A stretch of 41,666 nt of DNA from Escherichia phage vB_EcoM_ECO1230-10. Where the stretch lies: sequence record NC_027995.1. One strand, given 5' to 3'. Positions within the stretch are counted from its first letter, which is position 1, and each line of letters begins with the position of its first letter. The position numbers and the translations under genes were made by a program. Below the pieces are notes generated by a model that had not been told where the DNA came from, ran no database searches, and saw only the letters and a program-made list of their open reading frames with translations. This document shows positions 3,084 through 18,556 of the stretch, piece after piece.

Positions 3084-3791
3084 TCATTGTTTACGATAAC
3101 CTTTGCCAGAAAGCCAAATTGCAATTTCTGTGGCAACACCAATGTCAAGGCTGGTTTTTGTAGTGGCCGCAAAGTTAGCCAGTTCGTAAAGTATTTCATC
3201 ACGCGCTTCACATTCATTCATGTCGGACTCTAACTGATCATCGTTCAATATCGCAGTATCGCGAGGCACAACAATTCCAGCGGTTTGGGATTCGTTAGGC
3301 TGTACGATGCGGTAAGCAATGATGTCACCGTTACTGCCAGTATGTGACCATGAAAAATCTCCTGCTCTGTCATTATTGAAATGAAGCGGACTAGGTTTCA
3401 GGTATTTGACTTCAACAATTGCGTCACTATCCACCGGGCATTCACCGCCAGCCCATTCAATCCAGCCGTCAGCGTCGGCAGCACTGGCGGTTTTGCCTGC
3501 CCCTGCGTCAGACGTGTAGTGTCCAGTTGAAACCTGGTACGGTCGCAGTTCTTTACTGGCTGCCAGCGCGGCTTCGTACTGTTCGCGGGTGATTTTTACG
3601 CCAGCCTCGCCACATTTTCTGTGATCAATAGCCAGTTCATTAAGGAAGATTCCTGTTCTTACATTTCCTCGACCGTAAAACATAAGTTCACGGTCGTAAT
3701 CTTGCCCGATGCGGGTTACTTTTTTTGGCCACCCGCCATTTTCAGGAAGATACGCAACCAGCAAAGCAAGTAAAGTTTTTGATGTGTTCAT
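3084..3791 (-). CDS. hypothetical protein (235 aa), accessory gene downstream of tail gene D
   Basis: ORF track; no recognisable motif; relatively AT-rich compared with tail genes. Confidence 0.6.
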   Translation of the reverse strand: MNTSKTLLALLVAYLPENGGWPKKVTRIGQDYDRELMFYGRGNVRTGIFLNELAIDHRKCGEAGVKITREQYEAALAASKELRPYQVSTGHYTSDAGAGKTASAADADGWIEWAGGECPVDSDAIVEVKYLKPSPLHFNNDRAGDFSWSHTGSNGDIIAYRIVQPNESQTAGIVVPRDTAILNDDQLESDMNECEARDEILYELANFAATTKTSLDIGVATEIAIWLSGKGYRKQ

Positions 3792-3885
3792 GTGGGCATT
3801 ACCTCGTTATTAATCCGGGCAGGTTATCCGCCCGGATAAGGTAATGATATGCGATGATGTAGAGTGATTGCAACAATGTTTGTTG

Positions 3886-5040
3886 TTATTTTTCTTCAAT
3901 GACGTGACCAGGTCCGTCATCGCCTTCGTTAATGTCCTTTTCTTCGATCACGTGTCCTGGACCATCATCGTCAGGCGGGTCGCTTTCTTGCGGCTTCCTG
4001 CGCTCGATGATTTGCACCTTAGGTTCTTCTTCGCTGTTCGGCTTCGTTGCTTCCACGTCGCACGAATAACCATTATCATCCAGCCTGTGATCTGCGCGGG
4101 TAATCAGCCATTCCCCATCAATGCCATCTCGGAACCCAACAAGCACCAGTTTGCATTCAGCGGCAATGGTCGGGTCACCAGGCAGCGTTACGGCAACAGT
4201 CACCTGGTTGCGCTGACGCTTAGACAGTTCGGCTTTGGCTGCGTCCAGTGCCATTGCCTGCGTTGGGTAGTATTTGCCAATGCGTTTTACCGGCTCACCT
4301 TCGCCAACCTTCACTTCGTTGCGCGCGGCCTTCTTCGTCACCTGGTAGTAAGCCACCACCGTGCCTGCGTTTTCGCGCTTCTGGCTGGTTAGCCGGAATG
4401 CGGTGCAATCCTGCGCCGTCAGCGTTATGGTTGGCAGTTCTTCGCCGCTGGCCGTCTTACCTTCTCCGCGCTTCGTGACCGTGATTTTGCCGCCTGATGG
4501 CTTCACTACGCCGTCATATTTCTTGGCCAGTCGCAGTAACAGGTTCAGGTCAGATTCATCGGCCTGGTCGGTGTGGGGCAGGGTGATTTTGGCCATGCTA
4601 TCTGACACGGCTGATTCCATGCCGTGTTCTTCGGCAATCTTCTTCACCATGTCGCCAAACTTCGTGCCTTTGGTCCAGCTACGTGATTTTTGCGTTTGCA
4701 GGTCGGTTTTGCCTCCCTTTGACTTGTCATAGGTGGCGGCGCGCGCCCTGATTGTCATGGCGCCTGGCCAGCCAGCCAGTTCCACTTCGTCACAGATGAA
4801 CAAGCCCATGCGCTGTGTCCAGTTATCATAACCCAGGAACAGTTCCAGTTCTGCGCCTGTTTCCGGCATCTGGATTGGGTTGGCCGGTTCATCATCGGCA
4901 AGGCTTATTTCCAGCGTGTCAGATTCCAGCCCCACACCATCGGACAGGCTAAGACTTATCAGGCGTTCATTGATTTTTGCGGTGATGTCATCGCCGTTGG
5001 CCAGCACGCGAAACGCTGGCGCAATTCCAGTCAATCCCAT
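3886..5040 (-). CDS. tail protein D (P2 gpD / late control D family)
   Basis: size and sequence style of P2 gpD; terminal position in tail operon after U and X; C-terminal DDGPGHVIEEK x2. Confidence 0.85.
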   Translation of the reverse strand: MGLTGIAPAFRVLANGDDITAKINERLISLSLSDGVGLESDTLEISLADDEPANPIQMPETGAELELFLGYDNWTQRMGLFICDEVELAGWPGAMTIRARAATYDKSKGGKTDLQTQKSRSWTKGTKFGDMVKKIAEEHGMESAVSDSMAKITLPHTDQADESDLNLLLRLAKKYDGVVKPSGGKITVTKRGEGKTASGEELPTITLTAQDCTAFRLTSQKRENAGTVVAYYQVTKKAARNEVKVGEGEPVKRIGKYYPTQAMALDAAKAELSKRQRNQVTVAVTLPGDPTIAAECKLVLVGFRDGIDGEWLITRADHRLDDNGYSCDVEATKPNSEEEPKVQIIERRKPQESDPPDDDGPGHVIEEKDINEGDDGPGHVIEEK

Positions 5041-5240
5041 AATTTGATGCCCTGCGTGGTTGCTGGTGTCGTGATTTCCGGCAGGTTGATGACCAGGCCA
5101 GCAGGCAGCACAGGTCCACGGTCTGCCAGCCCTTTGTTGGCGTTCAGCAGTGCTTCCACGGTGCCAGCGTCCTGGTTTCCGTAGTATTTCCAGGCGATGT
5201 AATCAGCCGTGTCACCATCTTTGGTAATGTAAGTTTGCAT
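5031..5240 (-). CDS. tail protein X (P2 gpX-like, LysM-like)
   Basis: 69 aa; GDT..D.I...YYG......ALL.AN.GLA..G.VLP.G pattern as in P2 gpX. Confidence 0.8.
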   Translation of the reverse strand: MQTYITKDGDTADYIAWKYYGNQDAGTVEALLNANKGLADRGPVLPAGLVINLPEITTPATTQGIKLWD

Positions 5241-5650
5241 CAGTTGAACCGCCGAAGTTGCAAATTGAATTCCTGTTTGCGTGGCGCACCGAACGCCGCG
5301 AACAATGATTGTTTTTCGTCAATGGCTTCAATCAGCCACTTGCCCCACAGCTTACCCAGGCCGTCCACCAGCAACAGCGGCTGACCACGTCCAGCCATGC
5401 TGCGCATTTGCTCTACCTGCTGAAAACCGCCACGGTATTCAGGGTAAATGATGCCAGCCAGGGTGATGGTTTCCTCTCCAATACCCACGAATTGCGATGA
5501 TGGTCGCTGGCCAAAACGGTGCTGCGATGGCCACTTATATTCGCTGTGGCGGTTCAGTTCCTGATATGCAGCAGTGAGGATGCAGAACTGGAAGCCGCCC
5601 AACATCATCATGATGTTGGTCTGCCCGGTTAAAATCGTGAAACTGGTCAT
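5240..5650 (-). CDS. tail protein U (P2 gpU-like)
   Basis: YQEL...S...P....G.RP..QF.G.GEETITL.G..YPE..GG and WLIEAIDEKQ motifs typical of gpU. Confidence 0.8.
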   Translation of the reverse strand: MTSFTILTGQTNIMMMLGGFQFCILTAAYQELNRHSEYKWPSQHRFGQRPSSQFVGIGEETITLAGIIYPEYRGGFQQVEQMRSMAGRGQPLLLVDGLGKLWGKWLIEAIDEKQSLFAAFGAPRKQEFNLQLRRFN

Positions 5651-7992
5651 GGTGCCGTCACTCCGTCATTCATCATGCTGCGCTGGCGCACCTGGCGTCG
5701 GCGCTCCTGTTCGTCGGCAATACGTTTGGCCAGGTCGGCGTTGTTCTCACCAGGGCGCTGCGTCACCTGAATGGTGGTTGTGCTGCTGTCGGTGTACGTA
5801 CTGCCGCCACGGTTTGCCAGGGCAGGCGCTGGCAATGCGTTACCTGGCGTCATCGGTGATGCCAGTGTGTTACCTTCTGGTACGTCATCACCACCAAACG
5901 GATTGCGGAAAAAGTCTTTTGTTGACTCCCACGCGCTGCCAGCCATGTCAGAAACGCTGTTTTTGAAATCAATGGCTTTTTGCGTCAGTGCGCCAATGTT
6001 GTCAGAAACCCAAATGATCTTATCAATCAGGAACTGAATTGGCCCCAACACAAAATCAATGCCTGCGGCAAGCGCCTTGCCGAACTTCTGGCCAGCGTCA
6101 CCGGCCTTTTTCAGTTCTTCGCTGCTGTAGCTCACCGGTTCGGCCAGTTTTGTGAACCAATCCCACACCTTGCCAGCAACGTCAGCAACCCACTGGAACG
6201 CGGTTTTGACTGGCCCTAACTTATCCCACAGCGCCTGGAATTTCTCCGTCACTGGTTGCAACCCTTGCTGGATTCCCTGCAAAGTGCCGGTCATGAACGC
6301 TTTGACGCCAGCCCAATTGCGGTAAATCCACAGGCCGCCAAGCGCCAGTCCGGTAATCAGGGCACCAATGCCGGTGGAAATGAACGCCGCACCTATGGCG
6401 CGCACACCAGCGACAACGGCAGGGATTCCACGCGTTGCCATGCCCAACAGTCCACCGTTGGCCACGGTAGCTGCGGCACCAACCGCACGCGAGGAAACTG
6501 CGGTCAAGGCCATCTGTGCGCGGGCACCAGCCAGGGCGCCTACAATACGAAGCGCACCACCACGCAGGTACGTGAACGCGAAGCCAGCAGCAAACGTGGC
6601 AATGCGCATGGTAATCAGTGCGCCAGCCGTGGCTACAATGGCTTTGGTGACAACCGGGTGCGCTTGCGCCAGTTCTGTAACCTTGCCAATCCACGGACTA
6701 ATGGTTTTCAGGACGCTGTTGAATGCTGGAAGCAGCACGCTGCCAATAGTGATACCAAGTGCGGTGATCTGGTTTCGGAATATTACCAGTTCGTTTGCCG
6801 TTGTTGCGGCCCGTGCCTGGTATTCTTTTTCCATCGAACCGGCATATTTCATTTTGTTCGCTACAGCGTCAAAATTCTTTTCCAGTTCCTTGATGTTCGT
6901 CAGCAATGGCGCAATTGAACCAACAACCTCTTTGCCAAAAAGCTGCGTCAGAACCGCTGACTGTTCGTGTTTCCGCAGTTTTGCAACCTGCTTGAGAATG
7001 ACAAGCATGGTTTTTTTGGAGTCCAGTTGCATGGATTTTGCAACTGCTGTTGAGGAATAGCCAAGCCGTGCGAATGCTTCGCGCTGCGATTTTGTCGCAG
7101 CTTTACCCGCCGTCAGTGACAGCATCAGGTTTTTGATACCAGTGGCGGCAATCTCGTTTTGCACACCCATGCCGCGCAGTGTCGCACCAAGTGCGGCAAT
7201 CTCACCGGAAGCAGTACCGGCAACCTCGCCAAGTGGCCCGATGCGCTGCACGATCTCCATGATGTCTTTGGCTGATGCGGCAGTGTTATTGCCCAGGTAG
7301 TTGATTTTGTCAGCCAGGACGACAACCTGTTGCTGGTTCATCTTGAACGCAGAGCGCATCTCTGCCATCGCCTGGCCTGCCTGGTCAGCGGTGATGTCGA
7401 ACGCCACGCCCATCTTGATGGCTGATTCCGCAAACGTCATCAGTTCTTTGGCTGCAATGCCAGACTGACCACCCGCGGCAACGATCTTGCCAATGTCGTT
7501 GGCTGTCATCGGCAGAACTTTTGACATGTTGATAATGTCCTGCCCCATCTTTTTGAATCCGTCAGGTGTGTCGAAATCAACAACCTTTTTCACGTCAGCC
7601 ATCGTGGATTCAAAATCAATAGCGGCTTTGACCGGTGCGGCGATAGTGGCACCCAGGGCAATGGTGCCCATGATCCCATCTTTGTATTGTTCACGCTTCG
7701 CCAGGTTGCGTTCGCGGGCATCCTCCACGCGTTTCAGGCGTTCGGTGGCGGTGCGCAGTTTGTCAACCGCAGCAACGTTGGCGGCATATTTGGCGCGCAG
7801 TGAATCAACGTTTTTGCCCTGGCGGCCAAACGTCTGGATGGCGTTGGTTAGTGTGCGTTGTTCGCGTTCCAGCTTGGCCATTGCTGCGCCAACCTGTTCC
7901 ACAGATGATTTGACGGTGCCGAATGCGCCTTTAAGGCTGCTTGAAACTGCCCCGCCTATCGTGATCGTTGCATTGAGCTTCTTATTTGCCAT
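5647..7992 (-). CDS. tail tape measure protein
   Basis: 781 aa, Ala/Gly-rich with coiled-coil N-terminus; sits between E/E' chaperone and U. Confidence 0.85.
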   Translation of the reverse strand: MANKKLNATITIGGAVSSSLKGAFGTVKSSVEQVGAAMAKLEREQRTLTNAIQTFGRQGKNVDSLRAKYAANVAAVDKLRTATERLKRVEDARERNLAKREQYKDGIMGTIALGATIAAPVKAAIDFESTMADVKKVVDFDTPDGFKKMGQDIINMSKVLPMTANDIGKIVAAGGQSGIAAKELMTFAESAIKMGVAFDITADQAGQAMAEMRSAFKMNQQQVVVLADKINYLGNNTAASAKDIMEIVQRIGPLGEVAGTASGEIAALGATLRGMGVQNEIAATGIKNLMLSLTAGKAATKSQREAFARLGYSSTAVAKSMQLDSKKTMLVILKQVAKLRKHEQSAVLTQLFGKEVVGSIAPLLTNIKELEKNFDAVANKMKYAGSMEKEYQARAATTANELVIFRNQITALGITIGSVLLPAFNSVLKTISPWIGKVTELAQAHPVVTKAIVATAGALITMRIATFAAGFAFTYLRGGALRIVGALAGARAQMALTAVSSRAVGAAATVANGGLLGMATRGIPAVVAGVRAIGAAFISTGIGALITGLALGGLWIYRNWAGVKAFMTGTLQGIQQGLQPVTEKFQALWDKLGPVKTAFQWVADVAGKVWDWFTKLAEPVSYSSEELKKAGDAGQKFGKALAAGIDFVLGPIQFLIDKIIWVSDNIGALTQKAIDFKNSVSDMAGSAWESTKDFFRNPFGGDDVPEGNTLASPMTPGNALPAPALANRGGSTYTDSSTTTIQVTQRPGENNADLAKRIADEQERRRQVRQRSMMNDGVTAP

Positions 7993-14901: not shown

Positions 14902-15495
14902 TTAATCACCTATTGAAATATTAGCCTGCGGCATAACGTAATCATTCAAAGCCCCAACGCTCCGAACGTAGTTTGTGATACTAATTTCACTGCCAACACC
15001 CGCAATAATTCCGGTTCTGACTACTGCGGTTGATTTTACGGTCAGGCTGGTTTTAACCATGTGTGAACGCAAATTCTTGTTTGTGTCAATAATCTGCTTA
15101 ATTCTGTTCAGGTCTGCTTGCGTGGCCGATGTCTGGTCAATCGTTATGTAAACCTCAAAAGTATATGGCGCGCCGGTGGTTGCCATTCGGAACCACTCAA
15201 CAATGCGAATATCAAGGCCAAGCGCCGCAAGTTGGCGTTTCACTGCACCAATAGTTCCCTTAATGCGCTGTGATACTATGGATTGCTTGATGGTGTCGCG
15301 CTTCTGCTGTTCGGTCCAGTTGGTGTCCCAATCATCAACGCTGAACGCCCACGCCAGCCAGGGGAGGACGCTAACCGGGCAGGTGTCAGGGTTCCAGACT
15401 TCACGAACCACAACTGGCACGTCACTAATCCTGGCCACCGTCCCAGCCAGTGCGCGTTCCTGCGCTGTTGCGTTCGATGGCAGCAAATCAGACAT
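14902..15495 (-). CDS. baseplate/tail protein I (P2 gpI-like)
   Basis: EVWNPDTCPVSVLPWLAWAFSVDDWD matches gpI signature; ATG at 15495 (MSDLLP) preferred over the track's GTG at 15504. Confidence 0.8.
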   Translation of the reverse strand: MSDLLPSNATAQERALAGTVARISDVPVVVREVWNPDTCPVSVLPWLAWAFSVDDWDTNWTEQQKRDTIKQSIVSQRIKGTIGAVKRQLAALGLDIRIVEWFRMATTGAPYTFEVYITIDQTSATQADLNRIKQIIDTNKNLRSHMVKTSLTVKSTAVVRTGIIAGVGSEISITNYVRSVGALNDYVMPQANISIGD

Positions 15496-16390
15496 CTGTT
15501 TCACCTGCTGCGTTCACGGCAATGCTGGTGCAGTAGCTCGCCTGGCCGTCTCCAATCACCAGCGATTCAGTCGGTGAAATCAGGTTCACATTTTGAACGC
15601 CTGGCTGATGCAACGCGTGATACAAGCCAGACAAAGTGACATCGTACCCGATGCGGCGCTGCGTTTCGGCGTATGCGGTCACCGCATCAATGGCGGATTG
15701 CAGAACAACCGTTGCGTCAGGCCCAGGGTACAGGGTTAGTTCTGCTTCAATGTTGTAAGGCACAATGATTGCCGACTGCACTTGCACCTGGTCAGTCATT
15801 GGGCGCACGGTTTCTGCGTTCAGCGTGGTGTTAACATTTTCAAGCAGACTTTCTGGTGCGGTTCCATCGCCAGTGCGTGATAAAACGTAAACCACCACAA
15901 CCCCTGGCGTTGGGCTGACAGGCTGCACGTCCTTCACGTCAGGGTCAGCGCCAAGCGCGTGGAACACGTAACTGCCTTCGGAACCTGCTGTGGTGTATGC
16001 TTCCGGTGATAACTGGATGCGCGCGCGGAAATCATCGTCAGATTCCATGACGGCGGCCACTGGCGGCACTGCGTCAGGGTCAGCCGGTGTGATGGTCTGC
16101 CGTTCCACGTTGACGTTTGCGCCAAGCTGGTCCAGGTCGGAACCGGTGGCGTAGGCCAGCATGATGGCTTTGGCGGCCTCATTGACGCGATGACGCATCA
16201 GCAGTTCACGATAGGCGCAAACCTCCAGAACCTTATAAGCCGGATCAGATTCCACCAGTGCGGTGAATGTGGGGTCACGCTCCTGTAAGTCGGCAATCAT
16301 GGCCGCCAGGATAGTTTCGAAGTCCAGCGATTCAACAACGTTTGGCGCTGGTAATTGAGATAAGTTTACAACTGTGAAGGCACCCGCCAT
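15488..16390 (-). CDS. baseplate assembly protein J
   Basis: NLSQLPAPNVVESLDFETILA N-terminus and overall gpJ-like sequence; TAAATG junction with W. Confidence 0.85.
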   Translation of the reverse strand: MAGAFTVVNLSQLPAPNVVESLDFETILAAMIADLQERDPTFTALVESDPAYKVLEVCAYRELLMRHRVNEAAKAIMLAYATGSDLDQLGANVNVERQTITPADPDAVPPVAAVMESDDDFRARIQLSPEAYTTAGSEGSYVFHALGADPDVKDVQPVSPTPGVVVVYVLSRTGDGTAPESLLENVNTTLNAETVRPMTDQVQVQSAIIVPYNIEAELTLYPGPDATVVLQSAIDAVTAYAETQRRIGYDVTLSGLYHALHQPGVQNVNLISPTESLVIGDGQASYCTSIAVNAAGETDV

Positions 16391-16729
16391 TTATGTCACC
16401 ACTATGCCATCAATCGTTATTTGTTTGCCGTCTGGCAGGTATTCGCCGGTAATGGAAAATTCCACGCGCCCTGGCACCGCTGCGGTGGCTGTCACCTGCT
16501 GCACGCTGATGCGTGGTTCCCAGGCTTCCAGCGCTTCCGCCGTCGCTGCGTACAGGTCCAGCAGCGTGCTGCGGTTCATTGGTGCATCAACCAGGTACGG
16601 CAACCGGCTGCCGTAGTCGCGGCGCATCACTCTCGTGCCAATTGGCGTCGTGAGTATGTCACGTATGGATTGGCGCAGATGGTCCAGGCCATCCAGCGGC
16701 GCGCCTGTTGCCGCGTTTGTTCCTTTCAT
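16391..16729 (-). CDS. baseplate protein W (gp25-like)
   Basis: LRQSIRDILTTPIGTRVMRRDYGS matches GPW/gp25 signature. Confidence 0.85.
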   Translation of the reverse strand: MKGTNAATGAPLDGLDHLRQSIRDILTTPIGTRVMRRDYGSRLPYLVDAPMNRSTLLDLYAATAEALEAWEPRISVQQVTATAAVPGRVEFSITGEYLPDGKQITIDGIVVT

Positions 16730-16782: not shown

Positions 16783-17436
16783 TCAGACAGGTGCGCCGGT
16801 GTTGCTTCCGCCAGACTGCACGCCGCTGTGGCTGTGGTCACTGCCAACGTTTTTGCCGTTGTGGGTCAGGCTTGGCCCCTCGATGGAAACCGCGCCTTTC
16901 ATGGTCGCGCTGCCGCCCTCCTGGCCCATCGTCAGGCTTTTGGCCACGGTCAGGTTTCCGGTGCAAAACGTGTCAGGCGTGTCCATGGTGACGCTGGTGG
17001 ATGCCGTCACCGTGGCCGTTTCGGTGTTAACGTTAGCCTGTTTGCAGTTGATGATGACGTTACCCGCGCCAGCTACGGTGATGGTCAGCGTGTTACTGGC
17101 GCTGTTGTAGTCAACAGTTGTGCCATCAGGGTAAACGGTTGTTTCCTGGTCGGCGCTGGCTGCTGGCGCTGCGTGGTCATCCTGGAAGATTGAAGGTCCG
17201 ATGACGGCCTGGCCTAAATCGCCATAAGGCGCAAACAACACCACCTGTTCACCGATGACAGGCGGTGACCAGTCGCGTCGCTTGCCAGCGCGGTTAGTTC
17301 CCCAGGGCAGCCAGTCAGTGGTGCAGCCAGCTACAGAAACCTTTGCCCGCGCGTTGGCCAGATCCAGTTGCTTAATGGTTCCGATGCGAACAACGTTGTT
17401 TAGCTGGCGGTTCAGTTCGCTAACTTCTGCGCTCAT
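16783..17436 (-). CDS. baseplate central spike protein V
   Basis: gpV-like N-terminal OB region; C-terminal Thr/Val-rich spike segment with DHSHSGVQSGG tip. Confidence 0.8.
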   Translation of the reverse strand: MSAEVSELNRQLNNVVRIGTIKQLDLANARAKVSVAGCTTDWLPWGTNRAGKRRDWSPPVIGEQVVLFAPYGDLGQAVIGPSIFQDDHAAPAASADQETTVYPDGTTVDYNSASNTLTITVAGAGNVIINCKQANVNTETATVTASTSVTMDTPDTFCTGNLTVAKSLTMGQEGGSATMKGAVSIEGPSLTHNGKNVGSDHSHSGVQSGGSNTGAPV

Positions 17437-18002
17437 GGTGCCACCTGTTCGTAATCTTCTTCGTTCCCGGTGCCGATTTCAGGACTCCAGGAGAAAAACA
17501 CCTGTGATGGTGTAATACCCTCATCGTTCCAGACACTTTCACCCAAGTGGATGACTTGCTGCCACTCCACGCGCCACACCTCGAATTTGTCCAGTTCCGG
17601 GGTGAAGTCGTCAGGGAAGCCGCCAACCACGTTGGCTGGCCCTGTGGGCAGTTTCTTGGCCGGGTTAGCCTGGTTGGTCCAGCGGCGCTTGCGCAGCCAG
17701 GCCATGAAGGCAGCGGCCAGCGTCCTGATGGCCAGGGCGGCACGCGGCGTGCGGATGCTGTTGATGATAAAATGCGCCTCAAACGTGGCCACTACAGCCA
17801 GTTGTTCGGTGCCGGGGTCAATGTCGTTGTCTGCCTCCATTTCGCTGATTGTCAGCAGGCAGGCAGGGATTGGCAGCGTTTTGCGCGCTTCCGGGTCATC
17901 CTGGTAAAACTCCACGGTGACCAGTTGCGGGAATGCGGCTTTGATGTCGGCCACAATGGCGCTGTGCAGCACTTCTAAATCAATGTGAGTATCGGCGTTC
18001 AT
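17433..18002 (-). CDS. putative tail completion protein (P2 R-like position)
   Basis: position between S-like gene and V; ATG at 18002 overlaps upstream TAA; the track's GTG start at 18011 is less likely. Confidence 0.4.
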   Translation of the reverse strand: MNADTHIDLEVLHSAIVADIKAAFPQLVTVEFYQDDPEARKTLPIPACLLTISEMEADNDIDPGTEQLAVVATFEAHFIINSIRTPRAALAIRTLAAAFMAWLRKRRWTNQANPAKKLPTGPANVVGGFPDDFTPELDKFEVWRVEWQQVIHLGESVWNDEGITPSQVFFSWSPEIGTGNEEDYEQVAP

Positions 18003-18556
18003 TATGCCCACCTATCAGATGTTTCAATGTATTTTACGCGTGCCCTTAAATCGCGTTCGAAATGCTTCCAGAATATTTCTTCAACCTGCGTGAATATTTC
18101 ATCTTCAATGAAGATTTCTGCTTTGTCCTTAATGGGCATCAACTGTTCAGTGATTGGCAAGCGTGCTTTGCCAGCGCGTTTAAACACTGTGCGTTTGCCT
18201 TTCACCGTGCTGCGGCCCACAAATGCGCCGTCAAACTTCTGATCACGGAACGTGGCCCCGTCACTGGTCTGCTTGGCTCGGCCCTTAAAGCTACTCACCG
18301 GCAAATCATTTAAGCCGTACCACAACACAACGCCCTGTTGGCGCGTGCGCAGCCTGATTGATTTCAGGCGCTTGCGCATAGCCGCCATCGTGCGCAGTTG
18401 CAGTTCATCTTTCAGGCCACGGCCAGACATTTTTCGCAGGGTGGCCGCCGTGCGGTTACATGCGCGGCTTAATGCGGCTTTGAACTGCTTTTCACTGGCT
18501 TCCAGTTCAGTAGCCACGCCGCGCAGTTGTTGCCAATCCAGGTCAAAATGCAGCAT
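18002..18556 (-). CDS. putative virion morphogenesis / tail completion protein (P2 S / Mu G-like)
   Basis: 184 aa basic protein at the head-tail junction of the late operon. Confidence 0.45.
   Translation of the reverse strand: MLHFDLDWQQLRGVATELEASEKQFKAALSRACNRTAATLRKMSGRGLKDELQLRTMAAMRKRLKSIRLRTRQQGVVLWYGLNDLPVSSFKGRAKQTSDGATFRDQKFDGAFVGRSTVKGKRTVFKRAGKARLPITEQLMPIKDKAEIFIEDEIFTQVEEIFWKHFERDLRARVKYIETSDRWA

Follow-up and report, generated by a model that had tools for sequence, protein, structure and literature searches.

A duplicated, clade-specific C-terminal peptide in gpD, the predicted baseplate hub protein of Escherichia phage vB_EcoM_ECO1230-10

The window analysed here, a stretch of 41,666 nucleotides, is the complete genome of Escherichia phage vB_EcoM_ECO1230-10 (genus Jilinvirus). 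Open reading frame 3886-5040 encodes gpD, a protein whose exact sequence is deposited as ADE87912.1 / YP_009168889.1, and which is the final gene of a P2-like tail operon in the order T-U-X-D. Genes for a P2-type spike, for the gpW/J/I wedge and for two fibres lie upstream in the genome. The spike gene occupies 16783-17436, gpW 16391-16729, gpJ 15488-16390 and gpI 14902-15504, and a phrog_1072 protein is encoded at 17433-18011. The features of the operon end and of the gpD 3' end are as follows.

5647-7992: tape measure protein (TMP), upstream of gpU
5240-5650: gpU (PF06995)
5031-5240: gpX, a LysM protein of 69 aa (PF05489)
3886..5040, minus strand: gpD gene, predicted gp27-like baseplate hub, 384 aa (from Pfam, phrog, phmmer, Foldseek and gene order)
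3889..4038, minus strand: acidic C-terminal tail past the hub fold, approximately residues 335-384 (the pyocin hub alignment stops at residue 330)
3937..3969, minus strand: internal copy of DDGPGHVIEEK, aa 358-368, intact in 8/8 unique two-copy proteins
3922..3936, minus strand: linker DINEG, aa 369-373, between both copies
3889..3921, minus strand: terminal copy of DDGPGHVIEEK, aa 374-384, followed by the stop codon at 3886-3888
3916..3963, minus strand: the 48 nt (16 codons) missing in one-copy relatives, placed by a MAFFT gap whose exact position within the repeat is arbitrary

The gpD protein matches Pfam PF05954 (Phage_GPD) at 48.4 bits, above the gathering threshold (cut-off 30.1, E 9.6e-13), and phrog_52 with an E value of 2.5e-119. 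Its sole sequence match in the PDB by phmmer is the pyocin R2 hub (6u5h_C, E 1.4e-42), which aligns over residues 7-330. An AlphaFold2 model calculated from 64 homologues has a mean pLDDT of 81 and a pTM of 0.74. Foldseek matched this model with probability 1.0 to pyocin R2 (6u5h, E 1.4e-22), MuSo2 (3cdd) and Mu (9ki1/1wru), and with the same probability to P1 (9vzk), T4 gp27 (1k28), the Milano hub and VgrG/Pvc8 proteins. Sequence and predicted fold together identify gpD as the putative trimeric gp27-like baseplate hub of a P2-type contractile tail. A preliminary description of this DNA had named the gene 'tail protein D'; the assignment to gpD holds, and gp27-like baseplate hub is the more precise term. 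Database labels at this locus are inconsistent. RefSeq calls gpX, the small LysM protein, 'baseplate hub' and the true hub gpD 'tail protein', and GenBank records carry gpD as 'putative transcriptional regulator', a label inherited from 'late control gene D'. For Bas97 and PT1 the annotated gpD begins at an internal start and has 333 aa; the frame is 368 aa long when read from the GTG that aligns with the ATG of the window.

The closest characterised systems share the family, the fold and the position at the operon end after T, U (and X). These are the pyocin R2 hub PA0628 (6u5h) and P2 gpD, the latter 30% identical to gpD of the window. In all three proteins the final strand of the fold is followed by a short acidic tail. 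P2 gpD, with the terminus ...SDVEYETEDDE, and the pyocin hub (329 aa) stop no more than ~10-15 residues past the fold, and both differ from Jilinvirus gpD in having neither an extension of ~25 residues nor the peptide DDGPGHVI. P2 gpD was rejected as a precedent for such a long tail at the C-terminus, since what makes it longer is a basic insertion inside the protein. Mu gp44 is also a gp27-like hub (Foldseek 1.0 to 9ki1_G and 1wru) with a flexible C-terminus. It is only 12-13% identical to gpD, its tail has no sequence similarity to that of gpD, and a repeated peptide is unreported in Mu.

Disorder is predicted for gpD residues 354-384 (window 3889-3981), a segment that holds both copies of the peptide. 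The AlphaFold2 model has blocks of pLDDT ~85-94 in the core and values below 50 for residues 354-384 (means of 32, 30 and 32 over successive 10-residue blocks). This segment has no secondary structure in the model, and a short strand at residues 342-346 is predicted at moderate confidence.

Among 120 gpD homologues drawn from the database, those of ~72% identity or less end approximately 10-12 residues past a conserved ...KPN with a short acidic tail. These shorter proteins are mostly of 342-356 aa and come from Serratia, Pseudomonas, Ralstonia, Burkholderia and Xanthomonas relatives. The extra extension of ~25 residues is confined to the enterobacterial Jilinvirus clade (at least 74% identity; homologues P0002-P0013) and has no counterpart in homologues from P0014 onward or in P2 gpD. 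Within the clade it always ends in DDGPGHVI(E/Q)EK* or DDGPGHVITE*. DDGPGHVI is invariant in 15/15 unique one-copy tails, and the spacer ahead of it is variable (RKKPQESDPP, RKKPAASAPP, HKRSTPSSWKP). A conserved island within a variable, predicted disordered stretch is, on sequence and model, the signature of a putative short linear motif.

The motif appears to be private to this clade. In INPHARED (50,697 phage records), tblastn at E<=10 found it only in Jilinvirus gpD, apart from three matches at chance level. Degenerate DNA patterns run against IMG/VR and JGI metagenomes matched only at the C-termini of Jilinvirus gpD, and no related prophage copies were found in 5,426 complete E. coli genomes. 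Neither the BASEL paper on Bas97 nor the Milano and Mu baseplate papers mention this tail, and of the three only the work on Mu locates the C-terminus of a hub.

In the window the motif is doubled. The gpD C-terminus reads ...PPDDDGPGHVIEEKDINEGDDGPGHVIEEK* and contains DDGPGHVIEEK twice, exactly; written by its parts, the translated end is ...P-DDDGPGHVIEEK-DINEG-DDGPGHVIEEK*. The internal copy is encoded by GAT GAT GGT CCA GGA CAC GTG ATC GAA GAA AAG and is preceded by CCT GAC, the linker by GAC ATT AAC GAA GGC, and the terminal copy by GAT GAC GGA CCT GGT CAC GTC ATT GAA GAA AAA, followed by TAA. When the protein was shuffled 2000 times, every shuffle but one, which reached 8 aa, had a longest repeated peptide of 3-6 aa, compared with the observed 11 aa; chance is therefore excluded as the source of the repeat. 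The preliminary description had reported a repeated peptide in gpD, which is confirmed at the extreme C-terminus of the frame, together with an imperfect direct repeat of 30 bp in the DNA. That repeat exists and is longer than was stated, 33 nt with a start-to-start distance of 48 nt, and its identity is 27/33 (82%) in the repeat search or 26/33 in codon register. The term 'tandem' does not apply, as the copies stand 15 nt apart rather than in head-to-tail contact. The DINEG linker bears no relation to the SDPPD codons, the 15 nt that precede the first copy (3/15 nt match, by inspection), and has no likeness to the 3' flank. Tandem Repeats Finder at a minimum score of 30 did not call the region, because 15 unrelated nucleotides part the copies.

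Copy number varies among relatives. Comparison with gpD homologues, the check that the preliminary description had recommended, shows that they carry either one copy or two, separated by an in-frame insertion or duplication of 48 nt. Two copies are present in ECO1230-10, ECOO78 and ET-SD-TH and in four metagenome contigs (DNA, at least seven independent sequences). One copy is present in the sister E. coli and Salmonella phages ep3, HeidiAbel/Bas97, PT1 and Alux-21, and in KA2-1 and Arya. The unique tails retrieved number 8 with two copies and 15 with one, and a protein cluster at 90% identity (196 members) mixes forms of 384 aa and 368 aa. Megablast alignments span 1323 nt to ECOO78 and ET-SD-TH, as against 1275-1276 nt, in two pieces, to Bas97, PT1 and Alux-21. 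In a DNA alignment of the window with ECOO78, Bas97, PT1, Alux-21, ep3, KA2-1 and Arya the indel of 48 nt (16 codons) is clean. Alleles with three or more copies were absent from every collection searched.

The one-copy orthologues of E. coli and Salmonella phages retain 96-97% amino-acid identity to gpD of the window, and those of Arya and KA2-1 78-79%; tail and terminal motif are alike in all of them. They differ in being 48 nt shorter, and in Arya and KA2-1 the terminus is ...GPGHVITE* in place of ...GPGHVIEEK*.

It might be argued that the repeat is an artefact of assembly or sequencing, the outcome that the preliminary description had named as fatal to its claim. The two-copy structure recurs in ECOO78 (China), in ET-SD-TH (Ethiopia) and in the four metagenome contigs, which come from different samples. 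The same architecture is thus found in at least seven independent assemblies from several countries and samples. Furthermore, fixed synonymous differences tell the copies apart, and collapse or expansion of a repeat during assembly would not yield seven nucleotide differences between them. We regard an artefact as having practically no probability.

The direction of the change can be read from the outgroups. Arya, KA2-1 and the homologues P0004 and P0009 have one copy each. Upstream of the motif, all two-copy tails read ...VQII..., as against ...VEVI... in the one-copy E. coli and Salmonella relatives. Since the outgroups are all one-copy and the two-copy tails share VQII, one copy is ancestral and the insertion single. 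The descriptive part of our account, that an in-frame insertion of 48 nt occurred once on the stem of the two-copy lineage and was then stably inherited, is on this sequence evidence very probably correct. No reversion to one copy was seen within the two-copy clade.

Identical peptides might suggest a young event, and 'recent' was the word used in the preliminary description. The codons contradict it. The copies in the window differ in 7/11 codons (GAT/GAC, GGT/GGA, CCA/CCT, GGA/GGT, GTG/GTC, ATC/ATT and AAG/AAA), and every difference between copies is synonymous: 7/7 in the window, 4/4 in ECOO78 and 6/6 in ET-SD-TH. Over ~6.7 synonymous sites, pS between the copies is 0.6-1.05 in these three phages. 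Gene-wide pS of gpD in E. coli and Salmonella Jilinviruses is 0.16-0.27, that is 0.16-0.20 when two-copy phages are compared with each other and 0.19-0.27 when they are compared with one-copy phages; gpD genes within the two-copy clade lie at a dS of ~0.2 from each other. Two of the differences are fixed in 7/7 two-copy DNA sequences (the three isolates and the four contigs): the valine codon of the internal copy is GTG and that of the terminal copy GTC, and for lysine the internal copy has AAG and the terminal copy AAA. The other differences fall at polymorphic four-fold or three-fold sites. The GTC and AAA of the terminal copy are also the codons of all one-copy E. coli and Salmonella relatives. 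As the two pairs are fixed across all seven sequences, the duplication predates the diversification of the two-copy clade. Judged from these codons, its age is close to that of the deepest split among E. coli Jilinviruses, and it is not a strain-level event. The pattern illustrates that a short repeat can seem recent in the protein and yet be old and selectively maintained.

The same DNA sequences separate the copies from the linker between them. Counted by eye across the seven, the internal copy is polymorphic at five synonymous sites and unchanged in its amino acids. In the five codons of the linker N->T, N->A, N->D and I->V occur with no synonymous change, giving the forms DINEG, DITEG, DIAEG and DVDEG in two-copy phages. 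Since the copies vary mostly at synonymous sites and the linker is free to change its amino acids, purifying selection acts on the peptide and not on the DNA. Gene-wide dN/dS for gpD is ~0.05; at that rate the motif should, by our estimate, have gathered ~2-3 non-synonymous changes, and none was observed. With only 11 codons this speaks only weakly for a stronger constraint on the motif; it shows a constraint at least equal to that on the folded core, and not demonstrably greater.

The two copies are not equally preserved. The terminal copy is intact in 5/8 unique two-copy proteins and altered in 3/8, by H->G plus E->G in two and by E->G in one; every two-copy sequence retains at least one intact copy. 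The H->G change (CAC->GGC) takes two nucleotide changes. This comparison indicates weaker constraint on the terminal, second copy. Metagenome contigs L021 and L024, from different samples, carry a terminal DDGPGGVIGEK (CAC->GGC, GAA->GGA) beside an intact internal copy. Their degenerate terminal motif suggests functional redundancy between the copies.

Conservation at a gene end might instead reflect a nucleic-acid element, such as a regulatory repeat at the 3' end, or a second reading frame. A plus-strand frame of 174 aa (3868-4392) does overlap gpD, and a conserved, regulatory-looking region begins directly past the gpD stop codon. Variation in the motif nevertheless lies nearly all at third codon positions of the gpD frame, and Rfam gave no match. 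The codon-position pattern effectively refutes constraint at the level of DNA or of another frame, and we consider this explanation highly improbable.

The intergenic region itself (3792-3885, minus strand), from the gpD stop codon to the next gene, has several features of its own, and no Rfam family matches it. A perfect palindrome, CAACAAACATTGTTG, occupies 3871-3885, directly past the stop codon, and a promoter-like TTGCAA-18-TATCAT lies at 3873-3844. A hairpin lies at approximately 3797-3846; in its outer stem AUUACCU is paired with AGGUAAU, the Shine-Dalgarno of the gene that follows, and the fold of the RNA has z = -5.4. In a 10-sequence alignment 23 pairs are predicted, and 4 of them covary on both sides, also in a divergent relative. 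These features look like translational control of the gene after gpD.

That gene (3084-3791, minus strand) encodes a protein of 235 aa (phrog_26870, no Pfam match) and lies between gpD and a ParB-like gene. It is far more divergent than its neighbours, with 41% identity to the protein of Arya and 30% to that of KA2-1, compared with 78-79% for gpD; a central DGWIEW.GG.CPV and a C-terminal ...GYRKQ are conserved. Its presence follows the motif in four genomes, being found in Arya and KA2-1 and missing from Serratia phage MQ-4 and Pseudomonas phage PPpW-3, which lack the motif. A link between this gene and the motif is nevertheless unsupported, because a homologue (E 2e-18) stands beside the motif-less gpD of a metagenomic phage (P0014, L016). 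Other well-defined genes with a full-length match gave none with the same pattern of presence and absence as the motif. Two further differences among relatives were noted. In L016 and L017 the gpU homologue is 317-327 aa long, as against 136 aa, and has an extra domain, which is uncorrelated with the gpD motif. Downstream of gpD, at a distance of a few genes, Arya and MQ-4 have a tRNA-Arg; a search of the ECO1230-10 genome found no tRNA gene.

A role for the motif can be proposed from the position of the tail in related machines. In VgrG-type fusions the gp27 module runs straight into the spike. [quoted passage not shown] Taken together, these arrangements would have the Jilinvirus tail emerge at the hub/spike junction and, by precedent of Mu gp44, the gpD C-terminus may sit where hub, spike and tape measure protein meet. 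A partner at such a site would most likely be another baseplate component or an assembly factor. We propose that DDGPGHVI(E/T/Q)E, carried at the tip of a flexible acidic tether of ~30-50 residues, serves as a short linear docking motif. With the duplication each hub trimer would bear 6 motifs in place of 3, adding avidity or redundancy. This docking mechanism, drawn by analogy, is tentative, and we place it somewhat below an even chance. Description and mechanism taken as a whole are the best explanation we can offer, and a reasonably probable one.

The doubling could also be neutral. Replication slippage or illegitimate recombination would then have made an insertion that was tolerated in a disordered tail and hitch-hiked in a single lineage; the motif could matter even so, and only its doubling would not. 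One-copy relatives are viable on E. coli, Salmonella, Klebsiella and Enterobacter, and the gain from doubling may therefore be slight or nil. The decay of the terminal copy in 3/8 unique variants points the same way: as H->G and E->G are tolerated there in some lineages, the phages can do without a second functional copy. Set against this, the copies are identical in protein in most lineages despite 4-7 synonymous differences, over a period in which the linker acquired its four amino-acid variants. The two-copy clade has also kept both copies, although direct repeats of 33 nt could mediate deletion. For the second copy a neutral origin is plausible; as an account of the doubling we judge it a minority possibility, with perhaps one chance in four.

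A third possibility is that the motif is directed at the host. Driven through the outer membrane, the peptide would enter the periplasm with the hub and spike and capture a periplasmic or envelope protein of the host in the manner of a Tol or Ton box, and doubling would increase capture. Colicin TolB and TonB boxes resemble the gpD motif in being short invariant peptides within a variable, disordered, charged segment, and the change of motif copy number by duplication adds to the likeness drawn to short linear motifs of the colicin type. The presence of a conserved island in a disordered tail only in an enterobacterial clade fits such a role, and the D-G-x-G core loosely recalls the TolB box. 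The TolB box of colicins is DG(S/T)GW with an essential Trp. The gpD motif reads DGPGH and, in the E. coli phages, has no Trp in or beside it; it fits neither the TolB-box nor the TonB-box consensus, and it lies in a virion hub protein. Dependence of Jilinviruses on Tol or Ton is unreported, the BASEL paper giving only O-antigen dependence for Bas97, and exposure of the hub tail is unsupported. We therefore consider a host-directed role improbable. If it were true, the two-copy lineage would have adapted to its hosts by doubling its valency.

The docking motif remains the reading we prefer. The duplication is real, inherited and selectively maintained, and it is an ordinary, small change in a known protein. 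An invariant peptide that is private to one clade offers a specific and cheap target for mutagenesis and pull-down experiments in poorly studied phages that are candidates for therapy. The natural one-copy and two-copy alleles provide a ready-made comparison.
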